From Candidatus Parcubacteria bacterium (GTDB lineage: Bacteria; Patescibacteriota; Minisyncoccia; Minisyncoccales; JAGMDC01), in the NCBI GenBank assembly GCA_023128895.1, contig JAGMDC010000003.1, positions 70,514-134,513 of the forward strand: a DNA stretch of 64,000 bases. Reading direction: 5' to 3'. Each line of letters opens with the position of its first letter. Position 1 is the stretch's first letter. The position numbers and the translations under genes were made by a program. Below are positions 1,323-58,053 of this stretch, piece by piece. A model generated the notes under the pieces. The model saw only the letters and a list, made by a program, of their open reading frames with translations, searched no databases and had not been told where the DNA came from.

Positions 1323-4109
1323 TTATTCAATTTTGATTTTTGGAGATTTGCGTGTTTGGATTTTTTCTTGAATTTGAATTATCTTAAATTCTTCGTCATC
1401 GCTTTGCGGCGGCTCAATTTCTATTCTGTCGCCTTTTTTAATTTGGTCCGACAAAATCGCTTTTGCCAGCACGTTTTCCACTGTATTTTGAATTACTCTA
1501 TTCATTTCCCGCGCGCCAAAAGCAGGAGAATATCCTAATTCCACAATTTTCGTTTTCAAAGCAGGTGTGATATGAAAATCAATTTCTTTTTTCTTTAGCC
1601 CTTGCCTTACTTTATTCAGCATTAACGCAGAAATCCCCAATAAATGCCTTTTTGTTAACGGCTTGAACAGAACTACTGCGTCAAATCTATTGATAAATTC
1701 GGGCCTAAACATTCTTTTTTCAAACAGCATGCTCATAAGGTCTTTTTTAATAAGATCCATTTTAGTGTCTTCTTCAAGGTCCCTTACGATAATAGCGGCG
1801 CCGGCGTTTGAAGTCGCGATAATAATACAATTGCGAAAATTAACTCCCCTGCCCAATCCGTCAGTCAAATGACCTTCGTCCAAGACTTGCAAAAACAAAT
1901 TCAAAATATTTGGATGCGCTTTTTCTATTTCATCCAATAAAATTAAAGAAAACGGATTCCTTCTCACTTTACTGGTTAAAAGCCCGAACTGCTCTGTGGA
2001 TCCAATCAAACGCGCAATATCTTCTGTAGTTTGAAACTCTGACATATCCAACCGTATCATTTTATCTTCTCTTCCAAAATAAATTTCGCTTAACGCCTTT
2101 GAGGTCTCAGTCTTCCCTACTCCAGTAGGGCCCAAGAATAAGAACGTTCCGATCGGCTTCTTTCTTTGTTTAATCTCAGCGCGCGCGCGGCGCATGCTCG
2201 CGGAAATTTCTTTAACCGCTTCTTCCTGATTAATAATGCGCTGGTGAATTAATTTCTCCAAATTCAATAATTTTTCTTTTTCTTTTGTTTCTACATCCCC
2301 TACAGGGATTTCTGTTTTCTTGGTGATAATTTCCGCAACATGCTTTGGCACAACTATTTTGTTTCCCCTTTTTTTCGCGGTATGGACAACCACCTCGTCC
2401 AGTAAATCCAGGGCTTTTTTGGGAAAAGGAATATCCTCTAAATACCGCTCGGAATATTGTATCGCGCTCTTTAACGCTGAATAACTTATAAACACGCCAT
2501 GCCTGTTTTCAAACCTTGGCGATGAATTTTCTAAAACTCTTAATGTTTCTTTTTTGGAAAGTTCCGGAACTTTGACTTTCTCAAAAAGAGACGCTGTTGA
2601 AGCGTTACGCTCAATCTGATTAAGCCCGGCAATGCTTGTTATGGCAATAATCTGAAATTTAGGAGAACCGAGAAACGGTCCGAGTATCGCTGATATATTC
2701 ACGGCTCCGGCTTTATTCACTGTTCCAAAATAATTATGGAACTCGTCAATCACTAAAATAACATTTCCAGCGAAAATACATTCATCAAAAATTTTCAGCA
2801 AAACGGCTTCTACCTCTTCAACGCTTTCAAGTTGGGCAACTAAACCGGATAAATTCAATTCTATTATCCTCTTATAATTCAAGGGCGAGGAACTCAAGCC
2901 GAAAACGCTTTTTTGCGCAAGCGCCTTAACAATATTTTTCTTTCCAACCCCTGGCCTTCCAGCAAGCAGAATATTATTTATCTGGGAGCGGCATAAAATT
3001 TTCTCCATCTGGTCAATCTTGGAAAAATGCCCTACTTGTTCATAATGCGCGTATCGCATATATTTGCTCCAATTTACTGAATACTGGTCCAAGGTAATAG
3101 TATAAGCCATTGCCCAGTCCTTTGCCAAACTTCCTTTTTTCGCTAAATTTTTAGGGTCCCAAAATCTTTTATCCTGTTCAATTCTTTGTTCTATTCTCGT
3201 TTTCCAATCGCATAAATTGCTGATATCCTCAGGCTTGAGACTATTTTTTGTCAAAAAATTTTTAAAAGTTTGGTTATGTTTGGCAAGGGACAACAGGATG
3301 TCGCACGTACTCACGCGTTCGCGCTTTTTCTGAAAAGCGATTATTAAAGATTCCAAAATAACATCATGGAAGTCCACAAAATAATCCGAACTATCCGGTT
3401 TTGCGCGGAAATGAGTCTGGGATTGGCGCAATTTCGCTTTTAATAATTTTTGAATTTCTTGCGTCAACAAAAGCGCCCTGTTAAACACAAAATTTAATTC
3501 AGGATTTTTGTCTATAAGAAAATAGAACAAAATCGACGAATTCAAAGGAATTTTATTTTTCTTCGCAAATTTTATTGCTGCTGATACCGCGCTCGCTGAG
3601 CCAAAATCTAAAAATTCGGCAAGATTGTGTTTGCCTACAATATACATTTCGTCTTTCTTCTGTCTTTCATAGATACCTTTTTTGCGAACTTTCACAATGC
3701 TGGACAAAGGCGCTTTCAAAGCAGGATTTTTGAGATACTCAAAAAACTTTTCCAAAATCAAAGACGCGATTCCGAAACACAGAAAGATCATTGACAAACC
3801 CAATAACCGCAAACATATTGGATTGGAATAGATAAACGTTAAAGAAAATGTCTTTATTACGTCTATTAAATATATTTCAAACACTTTTATAATTTCTGTG
3901 TCGCCTCTTTGCGCGAAATATGTTTCAATCGGCGAGGTTATAAAAATAAAATAAAAAGTCAGGAGTATACATGCGATAAGACAAATAATGAACAAAATAA
4001 TAAAAATTCGCCTAAAAAAGTTTGCCAACTTAAAAGACGGGTGCTTTGCTACTTTCAGCGCCCTGTAAATATCTGCCTGTTTCAGGTCAAAATAAAATTC
4101 TGAAGCCAT
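1323..4109 (-). CDS. membrane-anchored ClpB/ClpC-like AAA+ ATPase with two nucleotide-binding domains
   Basis: Two Walker A sites (GRPGVGKK; GPTGVGKTE), Walker B (VIDEFH; LLDEIEKAH) and the sensor region NCIIIATSN. The N-terminus has 2 predicted TM helices instead of a canonical Clp_N-only start. Confidence 0.8.
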   Translation of the reverse strand: MASEFYFDLKQADIYRALKVAKHPSFKLANFFRRIFIILFIICLIACILLTFYFIFITSPIETYFAQRGDTEIIKVFEIYLIDVIKTFSLTFIYSNPICLRLLGLSMIFLCFGIASLILEKFFEYLKNPALKAPLSSIVKVRKKGIYERQKKDEMYIVGKHNLAEFLDFGSASAVSAAIKFAKKNKIPLNSSILFYFLIDKNPELNFVFNRALLLTQEIQKLLKAKLRQSQTHFRAKPDSSDYFVDFHDVILESLIIAFQKKRERVSTCDILLSLAKHNQTFKNFLTKNSLKPEDISNLCDWKTRIEQRIEQDKRFWDPKNLAKKGSLAKDWAMAYTITLDQYSVNWSKYMRYAHYEQVGHFSKIDQMEKILCRSQINNILLAGRPGVGKKNIVKALAQKSVFGLSSSPLNYKRIIELNLSGLVAQLESVEEVEAVLLKIFDECIFAGNVILVIDEFHNYFGTVNKAGAVNISAILGPFLGSPKFQIIAITSIAGLNQIERNASTASLFEKVKVPELSKKETLRVLENSSPRFENRHGVFISYSALKSAIQYSERYLEDIPFPKKALDLLDEVVVHTAKKRGNKIVVPKHVAEIITKKTEIPVGDVETKEKEKLLNLEKLIHQRIINQEEAVKEISASMRRARAEIKQRKKPIGTFLFLGPTGVGKTETSKALSEIYFGREDKMIRLDMSEFQTTEDIARLIGSTEQFGLLTSKVRRNPFSLILLDEIEKAHPNILNLFLQVLDEGHLTDGLGRGVNFRNCIIIATSNAGAAIIVRDLEEDTKMDLIKKDLMSMLFEKRMFRPEFINRFDAVVLFKPLTKRHLLGISALMLNKVRQGLKKKEIDFHITPALKTKIVELGYSPAFGAREMNRVIQNTVENVLAKAILSDQIKKGDRIEIEPPQSDDEEFKIIQIQEKIQTRKSPKIKIE

Positions 4110-26400: not shown

Positions 26401-26415
26401 AAATAAAAAAATGAT

Positions 26416-26586
26416 GAGCGAGGCAACAAGCCCTCAATGGCAAACATCGGAGGCGCCTGAGCATGGTCCGAGCCCCCACACCTAATTTAGGTGTGGGGGC
26501 TCGGTCAGGCGCTGAGATATTAGACCCCAAAATCCCGCTGGGATTTTGAGGGTCGGTGCCTTGAGGACTTCGTTGCCGAGCGAATT
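26416..26586. repeat. ~170-nt structured intergenic element, copy 1 (between dnaK and dnaJ)
   Basis: Terminal ~20-bp inverted repeats GAGCGAGGCAACAAGCCCTCAA/TTGAGGGCTTCGTTGCCgaGCG, with internal hairpins CCGAGCCCCCACACC...GGTGTGGGGGCTCGG and CAAAATCCC-GCT-GGGATTTTG. Confidence 0.85.
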
Positions 26587-26595
26587 ATTTATGAA

Positions 26596-28491
26596 TTACT
26601 TCTCCTTATATTCGCCTTCTTCCGCGGTTTTGTCGTCAGTTTGTTTGTCGTCTTTATTTTCTCCTTCCTGCGGAGGAGTTTGCTGCTGCGTTTGCTGATA
26701 CATTTGCGCCCCTACTTTCTGAATTGCTTGGGACAATTCTTCTGTCTTTTGTTTAATTTCTTCTATGCTATCGCTATCTTTTACTTTCCTTAACGCTTCT
26801 ATTTTTTCTTCTATCTCTTTTTTTGTTTCTGCTGAAACCTTGTCTCCAGCGTCTTTCAGGGTCTTTTTTGTTGTGTATATCAAACTATCCGCCAAATTTT
26901 TTGCTTCAATTGTTTCTTTCTTTTTCCTGTCTTCTTCAGCGTGCAATTCCGCGTCTTTTTTCATTTTATCCACTTCTTCGTCTGACACGCCGCAAGAACC
27001 CTCAATCCTTATTGATTGGGTTTTCCCGCTCGCTTTATCTTTCGCTGAAACATTTAAAATTCCGTTCGCGTCAATGTCAAAACTCACTTCTATTTGAGGC
27101 ACGCCGCGCGGCGCGGGCGGAATTCCGTCTAAAATAAATCTGCCCAATGTCTTATTATCCGCGGAACTCGGCCTCTCGCCCTGCAAAATATGAATTTCCA
27201 CTGAGGGCTGATTGTCAGCAGCAGTTGAAAAAACCTGCGTCTTGGAAGTTGGAATAGTTGTATTTTTTGAAATCAAAATAGTGTTAACCTGTCCCATTGT
27301 TTCAATACCCAAAGACAACGGCGTTACATCTAAAAGCAAAACATCTTTTACTTCCCCTTGTAATATGCCCGCCTGGACCGCGGCGCCCATTGCGACAACT
27401 TCGTCAGGATTAATGCCTTTATGCGGCTCTTTGCCGAATAAATTTTTAATTTCTTCCTGTATTTTCGGCATTCTTGTCTGGCCTCCTACCAACACTATCT
27501 CGTGGATATCTTTTATTTCCATACCAGCGTCCTTTAATGTTTGTTTTGTTAATTCAATTGACCTGTCAACATATTCTTTGACTAATTCTTCAAACTCCGC
27601 GCGCGTTAATTTATAAAGAAGATGCTTGGGTCCGGAACTATCAGAAGTCACAAATGGAATATTAATTTCTGTCTCTAATGTAGTGGACAATTCAACTTTG
27701 GCTTTCTCCGCCGCTTCTTTTAGCCGCTGTAAAGCCAATTGGTCTTGCGATAAATCAATTCCCTGATCTTGCTTAAATTTATCCACCAGCCATGTAATAA
27801 TTTTTTGGTCAAAATCATCTCCCCCTAAATGAGTGTCTCCGCCAGTAGATTTCACTTCCACTGTATCCTCACTCACATCCAAAACAGAAACATCAAATGT
27901 TCCTCCGCCAAAGTCATATACAATAATGTTTTTCTCTCCCTGCTTTGTTAAGCCGTAAGCCAGCGCCGCGGCAGTTGGCTCGTTAATTATTCTTTTCACT
28001 GTAAATCCAGCTACCTCGCCCGCGACTTTTGTCGCCTTTCTCTGTGAATCGTCAAAATAAGCGGGACAAGTGATAATCGCTTCTGTGATTTTTTCGCCTA
28101 ATTTCTCTTCCGCGTCTGCTTTCAATTTCTGCAAAAACATTGCTGAAATTTCCAATGGCTTGTACCATTTATCTCCCATTTTTACTTCCACTCCCCCATC
28201 AGACGCCTCTTTTAATTCATAAGGGAGAAGTTTTTTGTCCTTTTGAATTTCTAAATCAGAAAACCGGCGGCCTACCAGCCGTTTAACAGAAAAAATAGTA
28301 TTTTGGGAATTAGTTATCTGCTGTCTTTTTGCCAAAATACCTGCTAATCTCTCATTATTTTTGCCCAACGCAACAACAGAAGGCGTGGTACGCGCACCCT
28401 CTTTATTTTCAATAATTTTCGGCTCCCCTGCCTCAACAACGGCCATTGCCGAATAAGTTGTTCCTAAATCAATACCTAATATCTTTGACAT
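26596..28491 (-). CDS. dnaK: chaperone DnaK (Hsp70)
   Basis: [16 protein letters not shown] motifs. Confidence 0.95.
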
Positions 28492-36751: not shown

Positions 36752-37407
36752 TTAATTTTCTCAAGGATTTCTTTGAAGACATCGTCAATCGGCTGTTCGC
36801 CGTTAATTTTAATAAGCCGATTTTGTTGTTTATAATACTCAACTACTTCTACAACTGTATTATCATAATAATCAAGACGATTATTTATGGCTTCAACGCT
36901 ATCATCGCGCCGAGTAATTAACTCTCCCCCGCATTTATCGCAAACTTTCAATTTCTTAAATTCGCCCACCCATGGAATTAATCGCCCACACTCCTTGCAA
37001 ATCCTTCTTTTGGTCAAACGGCCAATCGCTTCTTCTCTGGAAATATCAATTAATAAATTAAAAGTATTTTCTTTGCGTTCCAAAAATTCTAAAAATCTAT
37101 CTAATGCTTGCGCCTCGCTAACTCTGCGAGGAGCGCCATCAAGAATAAATCCCTGATCTTCTTTAAGATTATAAGCAAAACTATGCATCCATAAAGTTGC
37201 TGCCAAATCATCTAATGGGAATCCGCCCTCTCTCACAATTTTTTTAACTCTCGCGCCCGTGTCTGTGTCAGCTTTTAATAAATCTCTAAATAAATCACCA
37301 GTGGAAATATAACAAAAATCGCCAAATTCTTTCATTAAAAGTTTCGCTTGTGTCCCTTTGCCTGAACCAGACCTTCCTATTAAAGTAAAATTTATTGGTT
37401 TGTCCAT
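36748..37407 (-). CDS. adk: adenylate kinase with zinc-ribbon LID
   Basis: P-loop GRSGSGKGTQ; CKECG...CDKCG; start set at MDKPINF because the track's upstream extension lies inside repeat copy 2. Confidence 0.85.
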   Translation of the reverse strand: MDKPINFTLIGRSGSGKGTQAKLLMKEFGDFCYISTGDLFRDLLKADTDTGARVKKIVREGGFPLDDLAATLWMHSFAYNLKEDQGFILDGAPRRVSEAQALDRFLEFLERKENTFNLLIDISREEAIGRLTKRRICKECGRLIPWVGEFKKLKVCDKCGGELITRRDDSVEAINNRLDYYDNTVVEVVEYYKQQNRLIKINGEQPIDDVFKEILEKIK

Positions 37408-37417
37408 AATGATAAAT

Positions 37418-37589
37418 GAGCAAGGCAACAAGTCCTCAATGGCAAACATCGGAGGCGCCTGAGCATGGTCCGAGCCCCTACACCTAAATTAGGTGTGGGG
37501 GCTCGGTCAGGCGCTGAGATATTAGACCCCAAAACCCACCTTAGGGGTTTGAGGGTCGGTGCCTTGAGGGCTTCGTTGCCTTGCGAATT
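37418..37589. repeat. ~170-nt structured intergenic element, copy 2 (between secY and adk)
   Basis: Same architecture as 26416-26586 with compensatory substitutions in stems. Confidence 0.85.
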
Positions 37590-37599
37590 TAATTAAACG

Positions 37600-38877
37600 T
37601 TAAAATGTTTCGTAGTCCCTCATTTGCAATTGCGCGTTAATCTGCTTCATTGTTTCCAGCACAACTGACACAATAATCAAGAGAGCTGTTCCTCCCAACA
37701 AGAACTGAAACACCATCACGCCGGTAATTCCGCCTATAATAGACGGCATTATCGCGATAGTTCCCAAAAATAAAGCCCCAAAAAGCAAAATCCTGTTCAG
37801 AATATAATACAAAAAATTAGCAGTTGACTCTCCCGGCCTTATTCCAGGCACAAAGCCCCCCATTTTCTGCAAATTTGTTGCTATCGCCTTAGGGTCAAAA
37901 GTTACAGCAGTGTAAAAATAAGTGAACAGCACAACTAAAATAAAATACAAAGTCGCGTAGACCCAGGGATTTTGAAATAAATCCCCTACTGTTTGCGCGA
38001 CACTTCCAACTATGCCGCCCGCGCCTGCCAAAAAACTGGCGATCATTCCCGGGAAAAGCATTAGAGACAAAGCGAAAATAATAGGGATTACGCCTGCCGG
38101 ATTAATATTTAATGGCAAATAAGTTGAGACCCCGCCATACATTTTCTGCCCCCGCACTCTTTTTGCGTAAGAAACAGGGATATTCCGGCGCGCTTCGTTC
38201 ACAACAACCACGCCGGCAATTATAAGAATAGCCATTATGAAAAAAGCAATGTATGTAGGAATTGCGGAAGGATCCCAAGTGATAAACATCTGGCGAATAT
38301 TATTTGGAAAATCAGCAATAATTCCAGCGAAAATCAAAAGCGAAACTCCATTGCCAATTCCTTTTTCGGTAATCAGTTCTCCCAGCCACATTAAAAACAC
38401 GGCTCCAGCGACCACAGTTAAAATTGAACTGGCCATTAAAGCGGGTGAAAGAGAGCCGATAAGCCCCTGTCTTTGAAATAAAGTTAACATAGCAAATCCC
38501 TGCAATGTAGCCAAAGGCACAGTGAGCACTCTTCCATATTGATTAAATTTTTGCCTGCCTGCTTCCCCTTCCTCTTTATACATTTTTTCAAACGCGGGAA
38601 AAATCATGGTCAAAAGTTGTAAAATAATCACTGCTGTAATATACGGCCCCAATCCAAGCATCACAATGGAAAGATTGTCCAACGCCCCGCCGGTAAACAT
38701 ATTCATAAGCCCGAACATCTGATTTCTCTCAAAAAACTCTCTTAAATTTTCTATATCAATTCCGGGGATAGGAATATTCGCGCACAGCCGAAAAACAAAA
38801 AAAATAAATAAAACAAACAACATTTTATTGCGCAAATCGTGAATTTTCAATATTTGTATAAGTTTATCTAAAATCAT
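37600..38877 (-). CDS. secY: preprotein translocase SecY
   Basis: 10-TM SecY pattern. Confidence 0.95.
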   Translation of the reverse strand: MILDKLIQILKIHDLRNKMLFVLFIFFVFRLCANIPIPGIDIENLREFFERNQMFGLMNMFTGGALDNLSIVMLGLGPYITAVIILQLLTMIFPAFEKMYKEEGEAGRQKFNQYGRVLTVPLATLQGFAMLTLFQRQGLIGSLSPALMASSILTVVAGAVFLMWLGELITEKGIGNGVSLLIFAGIIADFPNNIRQMFITWDPSAIPTYIAFFIMAILIIAGVVVVNEARRNIPVSYAKRVRGQKMYGGVSTYLPLNINPAGVIPIIFALSLMLFPGMIASFLAGAGGIVGSVAQTVGDLFQNPWVYATLYFILVVLFTYFYTAVTFDPKAIATNLQKMGGFVPGIRPGESTANFLYYILNRILLFGALFLGTIAIMPSIIGGITGVMVFQFLLGGTALLIIVSVVLETMKQINAQLQMRDYETF

Positions 38878-39311
38878 TTTAATTCTTTGATTTTTCCGCC
38901 AATTTTTTCTATCTTTTCTTTCGCTGTTTTAGATATTTTGCAATCTTCAATAATCAATGCTTTGGTTATCTGCCCCTTTCCTAAAATTTTAACTCGCGGA
39001 ATTCTTTTTTCTATTTTACGAATTATTCCTTTTTTAAGCAAGGCTGCTGGATTTACTTTTTCTTTATCCTGGAAATATTTTTCAAAAAAAGCAAAATTTA
39101 TTTCCAAAAAATTCTTTGGTTTGGGATTAAATTTATAACCCCTTAATTTTGGGTATCTCTTAAGCAACCCGCGGACCATTGGTTCTTTATTGCTGCCAGA
39201 TCTTGATTTCTGTCCTTTTAATCCGCGTCCAGCATAAGTGCCGCGCTTCCCTCCGCGGGCAACGCGCTTTCTTGTTTTTGTTTTATGATTTGGTTTAAGT
39301 TCATTCAACAT
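38874..39311 (-). CDS. rplO: 50S ribosomal protein L15
   Basis: uL15 sequence pattern; follows rpsE directly (no rpmD). Confidence 0.9.
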   Translation of the reverse strand: MLNELKPNHKTKTRKRVARGGKRGTYAGRGLKGQKSRSGSNKEPMVRGLLKRYPKLRGYKFNPKPKNFLEINFAFFEKYFQDKEKVNPAALLKKGIIRKIEKRIPRVKILGKGQITKALIIEDCKISKTAKEKIEKIGGKIKELK

Positions 39312-39317
39312 AAATTA

Positions 39318-39851
39318 TTACTTTTTAGTTTTTTTATCAACATCGCTACGCTCGCCTGCATCGCTATGCGAAGCATTGCGGGCAGGTGTGTTTCCTAACA
39401 TCTCTAACGCTGCAATAGTTGCTTTTGCGTTGTTTAATTTATTTCTGGTCTTCCCGAGTACCTTTGAAGATATATTTTTAATTCCAGCCAAAGAACAAAT
39501 TACCCTGACTGTGCCGCCTGCGACTAATCCTCTGCCTTCTTTTTGCGGCTTAAGCAGGACTTTTGCGGCTCCAAATTTGGAAATCACTTCATAAGGAATA
39601 GTGCCTTGTGAAATAGGAACTTTGATTAAATTCTTTTTTGCCAACCTGGTTGCTTTTTCTATGCCCTGCGCTACATCAGAACCCTTGGCCACTCCAACTC
39701 CAACTCTCCCTTTTTTATCGCCAACAACCATTACAGCGCGAAACCGAAGACGGCGGCCGCCAGCAGTCACCCGTGTTACTCTTGCCAAATCCAAAAGTTT
39801 AGAATCGAACTCGTCTTTTGGCTTATTTTTACGAAATCTTTGATTAAACAT
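39318..39851 (-). CDS. rpsE: 30S ribosomal protein S5
   Basis: uS5 pattern; start set at MFNQRF (the track extends to 39890). Confidence 0.9.
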   Translation of the reverse strand: MFNQRFRKNKPKDEFDSKLLDLARVTRVTAGGRRLRFRAVMVVGDKKGRVGVGVAKGSDVAQGIEKATRLAKKNLIKVPISQGTIPYEVISKFGAAKVLLKPQKEGRGLVAGGTVRVICSLAGIKNISSKVLGKTRNKLNNAKATIAALEMLGNTPARNASHSDAGERSDVDKKTKK

Positions 39852-39877
39852 AATAAAATAATAAATGATTTTTACTC

Positions 39878-39905
39878 TTGACAAAACCAATCAATGTGCT
39901 ATAAC
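39878..39905 (+). promoter_or_regulatory. sigma70-like promoter TTGACA-16-TATAAC
   Basis: Seen in sequence 20 nt upstream of the SD AAGGAGGT. Confidence 0.6.
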
Positions 39906-39924
39906 CTTATCAAGGAGGTTAAAA

Positions 39925-40164
39925 ATGGAAATAGGAACTACTTTTATTTTTGTGATAGCGCTATGTATAATAAGTTTGTGCCATTTGATTTTTTCTTTCG
40001 GCATAAATTTTACCATGGGAAATATGGTTAAAATCGCTGAATCTAATGGTACCAAACTTGAATCTGCTATCAAAAAAATAAAATATGTTAACAGATTAAG
40101 CAATACGATAGCACTCTGTGTCGCCATGTTAGCGCTGGGGATACTAATAGCACAATCCATTTAA
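39925..40164 (+). CDS. small (79 aa) two-TM membrane protein encoded antisense within the rplR-rpsE gap
   Basis: Strong SD AAGGAGGT 5 nt before the ATG; two hydrophobic helices; weak terminator after the stop. Confidence 0.55.
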   Translation: MEIGTTFIFVIALCIISLCHLIFSFGINFTMGNMVKIAESNGTKLESAIKKIKYVNRLSNTIALCVAMLALGILIAQSI

Positions 40165-40211
40165 ATGTTTGCAGGCGGACAAATTCACCTGTATTTTTTT
40201 TATTCAATTTT

Positions 40212-40613
40212 TTAAAATTTCAATCCTGCTTCGCGGGCTCCCTCTGCCAGGGCTTTCACTCTTCCGTGATATTTATATCCGCCTCTGTCAAAAACAATTT
40301 TTTTAATTTTCTTTTCCAGCGCTCTCTCGGCAACCAACTTCCCTACTGCGTATGCCAGCGCTGTTTTGCCTGCCTGCTCGGTAGGCAGGCCTGCCTGCTC
40401 GGTAGGCAGGGCCTTGCGGTCTCCAGCGTCTGGTTTTTTAATTTCTTTTTCCTGCGCCTCAACAATTGTATTCCCTTTTTCGTCATCAATAAGCTGCGCG
40501 TAAATATGCTGATGCGACCGAAAAACGCAAAGACGCGGAATTTTAATAGTTCCAGACACTTTTGCTCTCACCCGTTTATGCCGCCTAATTTTCTTTTCTT
40601 GTTTCTTTAACAT
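40212..40613 (-). CDS. rplR: 50S ribosomal protein L18 carrying an in-frame 14-aa insertion (LPTEQAG x2)
   Basis: uL18 C-terminal pattern; insertion encoded by the tandem palindromic 21-mers. Confidence 0.9.
40369..40410. repeat. tandem duplication of the palindromic 21-mer CCTGCCTGCTCGGTAGGCAGG inside the rplR coding sequence
   Basis: Seen in sequence; the same 21-mer occurs between genes at 41795 and, as a variant, at 50128. Confidence 0.85.
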
Positions 40614-40636
40614 ATTTTAACTTAAAAATAAATAAT

Positions 40637-40803
40637 GAGCGAGGCAACAAGCCCTCAATGGCAAACATCGGAAGCGCCTGAGCATGGTCTCCGAGCCACG
40701 CCTACTGGCGGGGCGAGGAGTCAGGCACTGAGATATTAGACCCCAAAATTCCGCTGGGAATTTTGAGGGTCGGTGCCTTGAGGGCTTCGTTGCCTTGCGA
40801 ATT
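40637..40803. repeat. ~170-nt structured intergenic element, copy 3 (between rplF and rplR)
   Basis: Outer helix and hairpin A conserved; hairpin B replaced by a different GC-rich hairpin. Confidence 0.85.
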
Positions 40804-40821
40804 GTTATAAACTACAAAACC

Positions 40822-41364
40822 TTACTCTGCTGTCGCGGCTTTTTTGCCCACTTTCTTTCTTACAATTTCTCCTTCATATCTGATTCCTTTGCCTTTATAC
40901 GGCTCTGGAGGCCGAATTTTTCTTATTTTCGCGGCTGTCTGCCCAACTTTTTCCTTATCAATGCCGGAAACAGTGATTATATTTTTCTCTACTGAAAATT
41001 TCACTCCTGGGACAGATGAAAACTCTACTGAATGGCTAAATCCCACCTGTAAAATTAAATCTTCACCTTGCAAATTTGCCTTATATCCCAATCCCTGCAC
41101 CTCTAATTTCTTTTCATAACCATGAACTACTCCTTCCACCATATTAGAAACCAAACTCCTGGTTAATCCCCAAAAAGCATTAGATTTTTTTGTCTCTGCT
41201 TGCAATAAAACAATAATCTCTCCTTGTTTTTGCTCCAACTTAATTTCAGGCCGAATCTCTCGCGAGAGTTCTCCTTTTGGTCCTTTGACCACAATTTTCT
41301 GACCATCAATTTTCACTTCAACGCCTTCTAATATTTTAATTGGTTTTTTACCTATCCTTGACAT
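40822..41364 (-). CDS. rplF: 50S ribosomal protein L6
   Basis: uL6 pattern. Confidence 0.9.
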   Translation of the reverse strand: MSRIGKKPIKILEGVEVKIDGQKIVVKGPKGELSREIRPEIKLEQKQGEIIVLLQAETKKSNAFWGLTRSLVSNMVEGVVHGYEKKLEVQGLGYKANLQGEDLILQVGFSHSVEFSSVPGVKFSVEKNIITVSGIDKEKVGQTAAKIRKIRPPEPYKGKGIRYEGEIVRKKVGKKAATAE

Positions 41365-50261: not shown

Positions 50262-50561
50262 TTACACAGGTAAATTCTCAATATCTGCTTCTTCATCTTC
50301 TTCCTGGATAGGTATTTCTAAAAAATTCTTGCCTTCCTGGCTCAAACCTTCCTGCTCGCGCTCGCGTTCCTTGTCCTGCTCCTGCTTCTTATCCTGCTCA
50401 ATTATTAAATCCGCTTTGTCAAAAGGGTTGTTCTTATATCCTTCCACTATCTTTTTATAATCACCGAAACTCATCACAGTTAAAACAGGCCTGCCGTCCT
50501 CAACAATTATAAACTTGCCGCCGTCTTTTTCTATTAAATTTTTAATCTCATCTAAATTCAT
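50262..50561 (-). CDS. hypothetical small acidic protein (Phd/YefM-antitoxin-like N-terminus, weak)
   Basis: ORF between tuf and fusA. Confidence 0.4.
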   Translation of the reverse strand: MNLDEIKNLIEKDGGKFIIVEDGRPVLTVMSFGDYKKIVEGYKNNPFDKADLIIEQDKKQEQDKEREREQEGLSQEGKNFLEIPIQEEDEEADIENLPV

Positions 50562-54593: not shown

Positions 54594-55457
54594 CTATATT
54601 GTCTCGAGTTTTTTTACGAGTTTATCGACTCTCCTATCGAGTTTCCTTCTAGAAATTTTACCCGAATTCCATTTTTTAGAAAGTTCTATAATCTCTGCCC
54701 GTTCTCTGCCAATCACTATTACTCCCTTATCCCGCAATTTTTCATAAACTCGCGCAGGTTTCTTCAAACCTTTTCTTGGATAGGTTTGCCATGTCAGCAT
54801 ATGGTCCGCCGCTTTCATGATCAGCTTTATTTGCTCTCTGTCAAGCCAGTCAAATCCGAGAAACTTATCTACACTATCCAACAAATTTTCGTGCGCAAAA
54901 ATTTCATTTGCTAAACTCTCTACCGTGCCATGGCATACCATCTGATATATAATCTCCCGCAAGACTTGAGTTCTATACTCTTTCTCGTCTATCCCGACTT
55001 CCTTCACTGCTTCAATCATCTTCTCCACATTATGCGGAAAAGATAATTTACTCGTATTCAGAAACATCTCTTTCCACGGCTCTTTATCTAAACCCTGGCC
55101 TATTCTCTGCGAAAACTGGCTCACTGTTCTTACTTCCTCAACAGTGAAATGTCTGCGGATATCCCTGAACAAAAGGAGCAAACTCGTTCGTCCCAAACTA
55201 ACCATGTCTAATGTTGTGAGCAAACGCAAATCAATGTCTGCAGGAATTTTCAATATTGCTTCCAGCACATCTAGCCAATTTCTCTTGCGCCACGCGTCCC
55301 AAACTTTGCTAATTTGCTCATTTAAGAACAAATTCTTTTGCTCGCTGAAAAATTCCTCGCCCGCCGCGTCCAGAAATCCTATTTCTGAAAGATATGCAAA
55401 CTCTTCTTCTTTCAAAACCGATTTTGCTTTTATTTCTTCTTCCACTTTTATACCCAT
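54594..55457 (-). CDS. 287-aa hypothetical protein P1 (cassette copy 1)
   Basis: Paralogue of 56024..56887: the N-terminal ~150 aa are ~90% identical at DNA level, the C-terminal half diverged. Confidence 0.7.
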   Translation of the reverse strand: MGIKVEEEIKAKSVLKEEEFAYLSEIGFLDAAGEEFFSEQKNLFLNEQISKVWDAWRKRNWLDVLEAILKIPADIDLRLLTTLDMVSLGRTSLLLLFRDIRRHFTVEEVRTVSQFSQRIGQGLDKEPWKEMFLNTSKLSFPHNVEKMIEAVKEVGIDEKEYRTQVLREIIYQMVCHGTVESLANEIFAHENLLDSVDKFLGFDWLDREQIKLIMKAADHMLTWQTYPRKGLKKPARVYEKLRDKGVIVIGRERAEIIELSKKWNSGKISRRKLDRRVDKLVKKLETI

Positions 55458-56023: not shown

Positions 56024-56887
56024 TTATTTTATTTCTATCGCAAGCCCGGCTTTCTTGATTACCCGCTTGACTTTCCTGACCATTTTTTCATATGAGAATT
56101 TATTTCTGTCGTATCCGTCGCGAATCTCTATTATCTTCTCTCTCGCTTCACCAATCCAGACATCGTGTCCCTCTTCTATTAGCGTTTTATACACATTGCA
56201 CGCGGCTCTAAAACTCTTTCGCGACAGCAGAGTATCACCTGCTTGTAACAGTTCTCTTGCGTGCATCTGTTGCCCGTGCATATACTTATCCATATATGCC
56301 ACAATTTCAACAAAATCACTGTTACCCTCTAGATATTCAACCAAACCTTGGTTTTCCTTGGTTATTTCAATCATGTGTTCCCAAATTACTTGTATATACT
56401 CGTCTTTGTCTATCCTTGTTTCCGCTACTGCTTCAATCATCTTTTCTATGCCGTCCTCCGCATCTGGAAAATACTTTCTTGCCATTTCCAGAAACATCTC
56501 TTTCCACGGCTCTTTATTTAAATCCTGACCTGCTCTCCGCGAAAACTGACTCACTGTTCTTACTTCCTCAATAGTGAAATGTCTGCGGATATTCCAGAAC
56601 AAAAGGAGCAAACTCGTTCGTCCCAAATTAACCATGTCTAATGTTGTGAGTAAACGCAAATCAATGTCTGAATCAATGTCTGCAGGAATTTTCAATATTG
56701 CTTCAAGCACGCCTAGCCAATTTCTCTCGTACCACGCGTCCCAAACTTTGCTAACTTGCTCATTTAAGAACAAATTCTTTTGCTCGCTGAAAAATTCCTC
56801 GTCTGCCGCATCCCAAAACCCTACTCCTAAAAGATACGCAAACTCTTCTTCTTTCAAAACCGATTTTGCTTTTATTTCTCCTACCAT
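56024..56887 (-). CDS. 287-aa hypothetical protein P2 (cassette copy 2)
   Basis: See P1. Confidence 0.7.
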   Translation of the reverse strand: MVGEIKAKSVLKEEEFAYLLGVGFWDAADEEFFSEQKNLFLNEQVSKVWDAWYERNWLGVLEAILKIPADIDSDIDLRLLTTLDMVNLGRTSLLLLFWNIRRHFTIEEVRTVSQFSRRAGQDLNKEPWKEMFLEMARKYFPDAEDGIEKMIEAVAETRIDKDEYIQVIWEHMIEITKENQGLVEYLEGNSDFVEIVAYMDKYMHGQQMHARELLQAGDTLLSRKSFRAACNVYKTLIEEGHDVWIGEAREKIIEIRDGYDRNKFSYEKMVRKVKRVIKKAGLAIEIK

Positions 56888-57310: not shown

Positions 57311-57952
57311 TCAAAAGAACGGAACGCCGACGATTAAATAAAACAAATAGTTAATCAAAGGCAATATCCATTGAAGGCAGAAAAAAATCACGAAAAGCAA
57401 AATAAACAAACCGTACTGAGTTAAAATGATTTTTACATTTTCCATACTTCGCGGCAGAAACGCGAAAAGAATATGAGACCCGTCCAACGGCGGGATTGGC
57501 AAAAGATTAAACACTGCTAAAAGCAGATTAACCCATACAATATATCCGAAAACAAAAATCAAACTCTGGGAAAAATGGTCCATTCCAAAAGGCAAAAATC
57601 TCAATAATAACCCAAACACAATTGCCAATGAAATATTTGCCAAGGGTCCTGCGGCGCCGACTTTTGCCGCGCCGTATTTCTGGTCTCGGAAATTATACGG
57701 ATTTATTGGAACTGGCTTTGCCCAACCGAAAATCACGCCAGCGCCAGTAAGCATACTTGTTAAAATCAAAAACCCTGGCACAATGATAGAACCTATTGGG
57801 TCCAAGTGCTTTAATGGATTTAATGTCAGACGGCCAGCCATTTTCGCGGTGGGGTCGCCCAAAAAATTAGCGACTTCGCCGTGCGCAACCTCATGTATCA
57901 CAACCGAAAAAAGAAATATAATAATAATTAAAATCAATACAAAAATTTCCAT
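57311..57952 (-). CDS. M50-family site-2 protease-like membrane metalloprotease
   Basis: HEVAHG motif, multi-TM. Confidence 0.8.
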   Translation of the reverse strand: MEIFVLILIIIIFLFSVVIHEVAHGEVANFLGDPTAKMAGRLTLNPLKHLDPIGSIIVPGFLILTSMLTGAGVIFGWAKPVPINPYNFRDQKYGAAKVGAAGPLANISLAIVFGLLLRFLPFGMDHFSQSLIFVFGYIVWVNLLLAVFNLLPIPPLDGSHILFAFLPRSMENVKIILTQYGLFILLFVIFFCLQWILPLINYLFYLIVGVPFF

Positions 57953-58053
57953 ATTTTTATTATATCAAAAAATCAAACTCTTGCCAAATTTTTGGAAATG
58001 GTCTATGATAACGATTGACTAATTATCATTTATCAGTAATCATTTATCTAATT

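Follow-up and report, generated by a model that had tools for sequence, protein, structure and literature searches.

The DNA analysed here is a stretch of 64,000 nt (hereafter the window) from contig JAGMDC010000003.1 of a Candidatus Parcubacteria bacterium. It contains the S10-spc-alpha ribosomal cluster, which is encoded on the minus strand as are 63 of the 65 crude gene calls of the window. The best matches of its S5 protein among GTDB species representatives come from Candidatus Nealsonbacteria, Minisyncoccales and Parcubacteria MAGs, with at most 80 % identity. S5 and L15 are separated by 6 nt only (39312-39317) and the L30 gene is absent between them, the lack of L30 after S5 being commonly described for CPR bacteria. 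L18 and S5 are separated by a much longer spacer (Table 1). In 150 related loci, taken from genomes and metagenomes, the same gap measures 11 nt in the median and at most 243 nt, compared with 360 nt here, and most of the longer gaps among relatives appear to be S5 N-terminal extensions or small repeats. An earlier reading of the letters alone (the sequence-only reading) had put the gap at about 320 bp and called it unusual; the length is indeed unusual, while the figure has to be corrected. It had also placed an ORF opposite to the operon, which holds once the strands are relabelled, the operon lying on the minus strand and the ORF, here called orf79, on the plus strand.

An assembly artefact can be excluded, since at least seven independent assemblies, obtained in one study but from different samples, agree at 100 % identity across the gap and over up to 3.3 kb. 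The layout is also unchanged in an eighth contig, L004, a variant whose sequence has diverged. The insert shows no similarity to the corresponding junctions of relatives, no paralog or DNA source of it was found inside the window, and a check for hallmarks of mobile elements revealed neither terminal inverted repeats nor a target-site duplication around it. An Rfam search of the region 37300-41000 returned nothing useful. Two relatives carry non-coding sequences at their L18|S5 junction that are unrelated to the insert in the window, namely a long palindrome in L009 (3889-4001) and direct repeats in L010 (3799-3986), and this junction may be a recurrent insertion site in the clade.

Table 1. 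Features of the L18-S5 region (window coordinates) and of the parallel locus L027 (coordinates of that locus)
Feature	Position	Strand	Remarks
L6	40822-41364	-	Pfam
rplR (L18)	40212-40613	-	Pfam PF00861, E = 3.7e-39; convergent with orf79
Lineage-specific insert (L18-S5 intergenic gap)	39852-40211		360 nt, GC 0.27-0.35
-35 hexamer TTGACA	39878-39883	+	candidate promoter; identical in L004
Extended -10 TGcTATAAC	39897-39905	+	TG at 39897-98; identical in L004
-10 hexamer TATAAC	39900-39905	+	5/6 match, final T missing
Shine-Dalgarno AAGGAGGT	39912-39919	+	5 nt upstream of ATG; unchanged in L004
orf79, 79 codons + stop	39925-40164	+	ATG 39925, stop 40162-40164; open in L004
Intrinsic terminator	40170-40201	+	hairpin 40170-40193, T8 at 40194-40201
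Shadow ORF, 89 codons	39891-40160	-	wobble positions coincide with those of orf79; no SD
Candidate leaderless S5 promoter	39858-39884	-	TTGTCA (39884-39879), 15 nt, TATTAT (39863-39858), 6 nt, S5 ATG (39851)
rpsE (S5)	39318-39851	-	Pfam PF00333 and PF03719; divergent from orf79
L15	38874-39311	-	Pfam
SecY	37600-38877	-	adenylate kinase downstream
L027, S8|L6 gap	2516-3001		486 nt; opposite-strand 67-codon ORF at 2718-2921

The canonical signals of a gene (promoter, SD 4-9 nt from the start codon, open frame, terminator) are all present on the plus strand of the insert. Inspection of the sequence confirmed the SD, the ATG, the 79-aa ORF and the downstream terminator where they had been described. 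The promoter had been called consensus, and its elements do lie at the sites given, with a spacer of 16 nt that ends in TGc; this label is nevertheless too generous, as the -10 hexamer lacks its final T, a position that is normally invariant. Likely promoters elsewhere in the genome follow the pattern TTGACA-17/18-TAnnnT, a type with which the -35 hexamer and the TG-extended -10 of the cassette agree. The terminator hairpin has a predicted stability of -9 kcal/mol (z = -2.76) and the element ends 11 nt short of the L18 stop codon; its stem is retained in L004, where the tail is T9, and a U-tract is absent after the hairpin on the minus strand. A 5-mer SD precedes only 6 of the 65 window genes, and the SDs of the window are mostly found downstream of a TTGACA-17/18-TAnnnT promoter or within a long AT-rich intergenic leader. 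The layout of the cassette thus agrees with that of independently transcribed genes in this genome. With the candidate promoter the predicted leader would span only about 11-14 nt, and a transcription start so near to the SD is unusual, which counts against the explanation favoured below. The ORF is also predicted by the gene callers of independent sources and figures in public records as an unnamed protein, in a 79-aa or a 99-aa version. The 99-codon version, with a start at 39865, was rejected, since it would begin upstream of the -35 hexamer and without an SD.

To what degree these signals exceed chance differs from one to the next. When the gap was shuffled 5000 times with dinucleotides preserved, 0.9 % of the shuffles contained an ATG-started ORF of at least 79 aa. 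The 8-mer AAGGAGGT, which lies at an optimal distance from the ATG, is found five times in 128 kb (the two strands of the window together), and two of its four further copies precede real gene starts; the probability of meeting it at SD distance from any given ATG is about 2e-4. The promoter match alone adds little, given how frequent pairs of promoter-like hexamers are in DNA this rich in AT (41 observed, 27 expected). The GC skew over 39800-40100 switches to the sign expected for plus-strand coding. Codon usage of orf79 reaches 0.07 bits per codon, compared with 0.33 +/- 0.10 for the window genes, and thus lies at the bottom of their range, while the antisense shadow frame scores slightly higher (0.18); as both frames are stop-free and low-scoring, this test did not discriminate between them. 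The combination of unusual codons and low GC is as compatible with non-coding DNA as with a gene that is foreign or young.

The sequence-only reading had credited the 79-aa product with two hydrophobic helices, and both approaches applied to it agree. In Kyte-Doolittle profiles (19-residue windows) the maxima are 2.7 (residues 7-25) and 2.3 (residues 61-79), with hydrophobic segments at about residues 3-27 and 58-79, which flank a K/R-rich loop of 30 residues with five Lys, one Arg and two Glu. AlphaFold2, run with no alignment, models helices at residues 3-39 and 44-78 with a mean pLDDT of 73, and a Foldseek search of the PDB with this model retrieved generic helical hairpins only (E > 5). 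The C-terminus (...GILIAQSI) lies within the second helix, without a polar or aromatic tail. By the positive-inside rule, the protein would most likely form a hairpin in the membrane, its two termini outside and its basic helical tip in the cytoplasm. A lipoprotein or signal-peptide N-terminus was discarded on reading the sequence, which has neither a positively charged n-region nor a proper lipobox. The ORF also contains an 18-nt inverted repeat (39942-39959/40066-40083, 94 % complementary), in which the FIFVIA codons are the reverse complement of the AIKKIK codons. One arm is altered in L004 without compensation, so that a conserved RNA stem is unlikely; the repeat may be a trace of the origin of the ORF or a chance match of A/T runs.

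Database searches identify orf79 as an orphan (taxonomically restricted) gene whose homologs are confined to one species-level lineage. A word-indexed search of 5.8e9 clusters returned only orf79 itself and one variant (P0002) with 80 % identity. In 1.84e9 representative proteins, phmmer found orf79 itself and one other match (E = 1e-4); the latter, a 1259-aa repeat protein whose score sums four weak repeated matches, is spurious. Nothing came near family thresholds in Pfam, NCBIfam, PHROGs or PADLOC, the best PHROGs match being no better than E = 0.14. SecG and SecE of Pfam gave no match at E <= 10, SecF was dismissed at 16.8 bits compared with an NCBIfam cut-off of 160, and a weak match to DicB fell far below the family cut-off. 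JGI metagenome contigs, IMG/VR, and phage and plasmid collections contained no relative of orf79. Among the 150 related loci there was neither a tblastn match to orf79 nor any hydrophobic opposite-strand ORF at the L18-S5 junction.

The variation of orf79 is documented by two alleles in a single comparison (window and L004). They differ by 18 substitutions and no indels, which cause 16 amino-acid changes and leave the frame open (Sd 1.5 of 52 sites, Nd 16.5 of 185 sites). In this single comparison, purifying selection on orf79 as a whole (dN/dS < 1) was not detected (within-ORF test, p = 0.38). In the surroundings, the last 50 codons of L18 show a pS of 0.028 and a pN of 0.009, the 73 nt with the promoter and SD carry two changes, both outside the signals, and the first 30 codons of S5 none. 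Divergence around the gap is low and mosaic, with a pS of 0.33 in the first half of L18. Non-synonymous sites of orf79 have evolved about three times faster than the adjoining neutral-like sites (Fisher p = 0.01-0.04), and seven changes are crowded into 17 nt that encode the predicted tip of the hairpin (residues 40-45). The distribution over codon positions 1, 2 and 3 is nonetheless uneven (11:4:3, p = 0.04), and in the membrane-segment codons all nine substitutions avoid position 2 and amount to conservative swaps of hydrophobic or small residues, namely among I, V, L, M and F plus T6A and A67S. In simulations, the observed hydrophobicity was attained in 2 % of the trials (p = 0.02), and 83 % of the trials introduced a polar or charged residue, a Pro or a stop. 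Constraint in orf79 thus appears to be limited to the hydrophobicity of the membrane segments. As a separate observation, L18 contains a perfect 21-nt tandem duplication at 40369-40410, which encodes LPTEQAG twice. The corresponding segment of L004 has a different sequence and is one codon shorter, which marks it as a variable insertion.

Transcription of orf79 is predicted to begin 6-9 nt downstream of the -10 element, at about 39911-39914, and to end at the T-run 40194-40201. Such a transcript would overlap neither the L18 coding sequence (stop codon 40212-14) nor that of S5 (ATG 39851). The description of the gene as antisense to essential transcripts consequently applies to the intercistronic spacer of a read-through operon mRNA only and not to the two coding sequences. 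Since the gap contains no terminator-like site on the minus strand, transcription may read from L18 through to S5 and would then be convergent with that of orf79. The collision with operon read-through foreseen for this gene, which converges on L18, was thus a fair expectation. The gap further includes a candidate leaderless promoter for S5 in the divergent orientation, both hexamers of which are unchanged in L004; its TTGTCA arises on the minus strand from the TTGACAA of the plus-strand -35 element, so that the two promoters would share their -35 region. A similar geometry, TTGGCA-17-TATAAT-6-ATG, precedes the gene at 57311-57952. S5-L15-SecY may also be transcribed as a leaderless mRNA from the divergent promoter, in which case the insertion splits the operon.

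A number of other elements in the window were recorded in the course of this analysis. A GC-rich structured element of about 175 nt is present in three minus-strand copies (40630-40805, 37415-37589 and 26405-26599; 82-85 % identity) at the L6|L18, SecY|Adk and DnaK|DnaJ junctions, i.e. between co-transcribed genes, and ends just upstream of the next ATG. A further copy with 73 % identity occupies the L6|L18 junction of a Nealsonbacteria relative (L008, 3366-3545). The consensus fold of the three window copies reaches -67 kcal/mol, and the four copies together show compensatory changes in 10 predicted pairs; Rfam gave no match at E <= 10. It may represent an intercistronic RNA element not described so far and is arguably of more interest than orf79. 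The promoter-to-ATG layout of the gene at 57311-57952 (upstream region 57953-57990) suggests a leaderless mRNA, and that of the gene at 50262-50561 is similar. Two 287-aa ORFs (54594-55457 and 56024-56887), presumably paralogs, lie on the same strand about 570 nt apart and have near-identical upstream regions, with AAGGAGGT 5-7 nt before their starts.

A comparable arrangement was found in one relative. All fetched loci were scanned for TTGAC[AT], 15-18 nt and TAnnnn, with an SD and an ORF with its start codon behind them, and only three strongly hydrophobic cases emerged: the window, L004 and L027 (contig DAOWKS010000046, isolate CSMAG_2101; S5 68 % identical). A cruder scan for opposite-strand ORFs in the gaps of related loci yielded mostly shadow ORFs of L15, and L027 alone survived inspection. 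Its cassette reads TTGACA-17-TGcTATTTC-7-AGGAGGT-7-ATG, followed by the 67-codon ORF, a hairpin and a T-run. This ORF resembles orf79 in its orientation opposite to the spc operon, its signal layout, its two TM segments and its orphan status. It differs in having a short loop and a charged C-terminal tail and in its S8|L6 site, and the two share no sequence similarity. Head-on cassettes for putative small membrane proteins have thus entered this operon on at least two independent occasions in the clade. The parallel in L027 raises our belief in orf79 as a real gene. There is also a small chance that the location of the two cassettes is no accident; the sample consisted of ribosomal loci only, and no enrichment in the spc operon is therefore claimed.

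Taken as a whole, the evidence makes it probable that orf79 is an expressed protein-coding gene, if all readings with a translated plus-strand ORF are counted. The more specific reading that we prefer, and hold to be rather likely, is that of a real, young and fast-evolving cassette for a small membrane protein, inserted head-on and splitting the operon. According to this scheme, the L18|S5 junction of the spc operon in this Nealsonbacteria-like lineage of Patescibacteria would have gained a self-contained, lineage-specific unit on the opposite strand, consisting of a sigma-70-type promoter with an extended -10 element, a strong SD, the 79-codon ORF and an intrinsic terminator. Its monocistronic mRNA would extend from about 39912 to 40201, measure about 290 nt including a leader of some 13 nt, and be translated efficiently by virtue of its SD. 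Its product would enter the membrane as a helical hairpin, of which the tip and one membrane helix would have changed between the two variants while hydrophobicity was strictly kept, the gene being young and fast-evolving. There, the protein would most likely bind or perturb a membrane partner rather than regulate the ribosomal operon. S5-L15-SecY would be expressed by read-through across the insert, from the candidate leaderless promoter, or both.

The most serious competitor, which we nevertheless regard as unlikely, sees in the 360 nt a piece of non-coding junk or a decayed foreign remnant, inserted so recently that the motifs still persist, and not translated into any protein. It agrees with a dN/dS that is not below 1, with codon usage at the bottom of the gene range and an antisense frame that is open too, with the failure of database searches to find homologs anywhere, and with the non-coding repeats and palindromes that L009 and L010 carry at the same junction; moreover, the remnant of a once-real gene would still account for most features of the cassette. 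What it explains poorly is the co-occurrence by chance of the ORF (p about 0.01), the SD (about 2e-4), two TM helices with a positive-inside loop and a terminator, or why the substitutions in L004 spare codon position 2 in the membrane segments. A protein could also be made from the other strand. If the real gene were the 89-codon minus-strand ORF, co-transcribed between L18 and S5, orf79 would be its shadow; this ORF is open in both variants, shares its strand with 63 of the 65 window genes, lacks an SD like most genes here and has a codon score (0.18) slightly above that of orf79. Against it, antisense frames with coinciding wobble positions are usually regarded as the commonest type of shadow ORF. 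The comparison with L004 also speaks against it, since the start codon of the 89-codon ORF changes from ATG to AGG and 11 of the 18 substitutions fall on second positions of its codons and bring radical replacements (A to E, I to T and P to S among them). On these two grounds we take the plus frame as the coding one. In addition, the minus-strand product has no homologs, the protein databases hold only the plus-strand product, and the ORF would overlap a conserved plus-strand promoter and SD, so that we consider this option highly improbable.

A regulatory role has been considered in two forms. The first is a module resembling type I toxins, with the orf79 mRNA silenced by the operon read-through RNA, or an interference switch that throttles the passage from L18 to S5-L15-SecY. 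The small hydrophobic product and the convergence of its gene with a highly expressed operon are compatible with such a device, as is the lack of a minus-strand terminator, which would make any read-through RNA complementary to the orf79 mRNA over its full length; the non-synonymous change faster than the local neutral background (p = 0.01-0.04) is also as seen in conflict genes. However, the size, the number of TM helices and the C-terminus all depart from published features of type I toxins (PMC2887945). The sole promoter-like site on the minus strand within the ORF (40073 to 40046) is destroyed in L004, so that a dedicated antisense RNA is not indicated; the leader is too short for the structured 5' UTR usual in such toxins, there are no tandem copies, and PADLOC, Pfam and NCBIfam contain no matching toxin or defence family. 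A conserved regulatory design of the operon is impossible because the arrangement is absent from all 150 relatives. We therefore give this form little credence. The second form would see the head-on orphan cassettes, with the stereotyped promoter-SD layout of the window and L027, as repeated colonisers of spc junctions in Nealsonbacteria-like Patescibacteria and as interference gates that uncouple the upstream ribosomal genes from S5-L15-SecY, or would have the read-through RNA silence a positively selected membrane effector; we rate it as a long shot.

Few gene arrangements in bacteria are as conserved as the S10-spc-alpha cluster, which rarely contains a head-on gene (at L18|S5, not one of the 150 relatives does). 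If orf79 is expressed, even the spc operon tolerates a convergent insertion, and the locus would offer a compact natural case of transcription collision in a highly expressed essential operon. By the same token, a fast-evolving membrane protein would join the surface repertoire of a probable episymbiont. The phylum is commonly regarded as rich in uncharacterised orphan ORFs. On present evidence it is the placement that is surprising, orf79 itself being one more orphan ORF with no function tied to its position.

Among known systems, the type I toxins were the first to be invoked for this gene. They are proteins of less than 60-70 aa with one TM region and a polar or aromatic C-terminal stretch, controlled by dedicated antisense sRNAs and at some chromosomal loci tandemly duplicated (Fozo et al., PMC2887945). 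What orf79 has in common with Hok, Ldr, Fst, TisB, Ibs and TxpA is a small hydrophobic product encoded in an intergenic region and a possible fully complementary antisense RNA. In contrast, it has 79 aa, two TM helices and no tail, and it has no conserved dedicated sRNA promoter, no long structured leader and no tandem copies. With toxin homology missing as well, the resemblance suggested by the sequence-only reading is not supported.

Class II holins come closer in size and number of TM helices. These are proteins of 65-95 aa with two TM domains and a charged cytoplasmic C-terminal tail, encoded next to the endolysin in phage lysis cassettes. Unlike them, orf79 has no charged tail, and its neighbours are L18 and S5 instead of endolysin or phage genes. 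A holin was accordingly rejected, for want of the tail, of a lysis context and of any meaningful match in PHROGs, phage collections or IMG/VR.

The enterobacterial small membrane regulators AcrZ, MgrB, MgtS and KdpF, mostly below 50 aa and with one TM helix, are transcribed from their own promoters and bind larger membrane proteins. The product of orf79 is likewise small and hydrophobic and would have its own promoter, although it is larger, has two TM segments and shares no homology with them. By analogy, a small membrane protein acting on a larger membrane partner is the most likely functional class.

In terms of origin, the nearest counterparts are the orphan genes for small membrane proteins, including de novo TM ORFs, which arise from AT-rich or T-rich DNA. 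With these, orf79 shares its short length, TM helices, atypical codons, low GC, fast evolution and narrow lineage. It differs from them by its full expression kit (promoter, strong SD and terminator) and its head-on site in a most highly conserved operon, and for these two reasons the acquisition of a cassette is favoured over gradual de novo birth.
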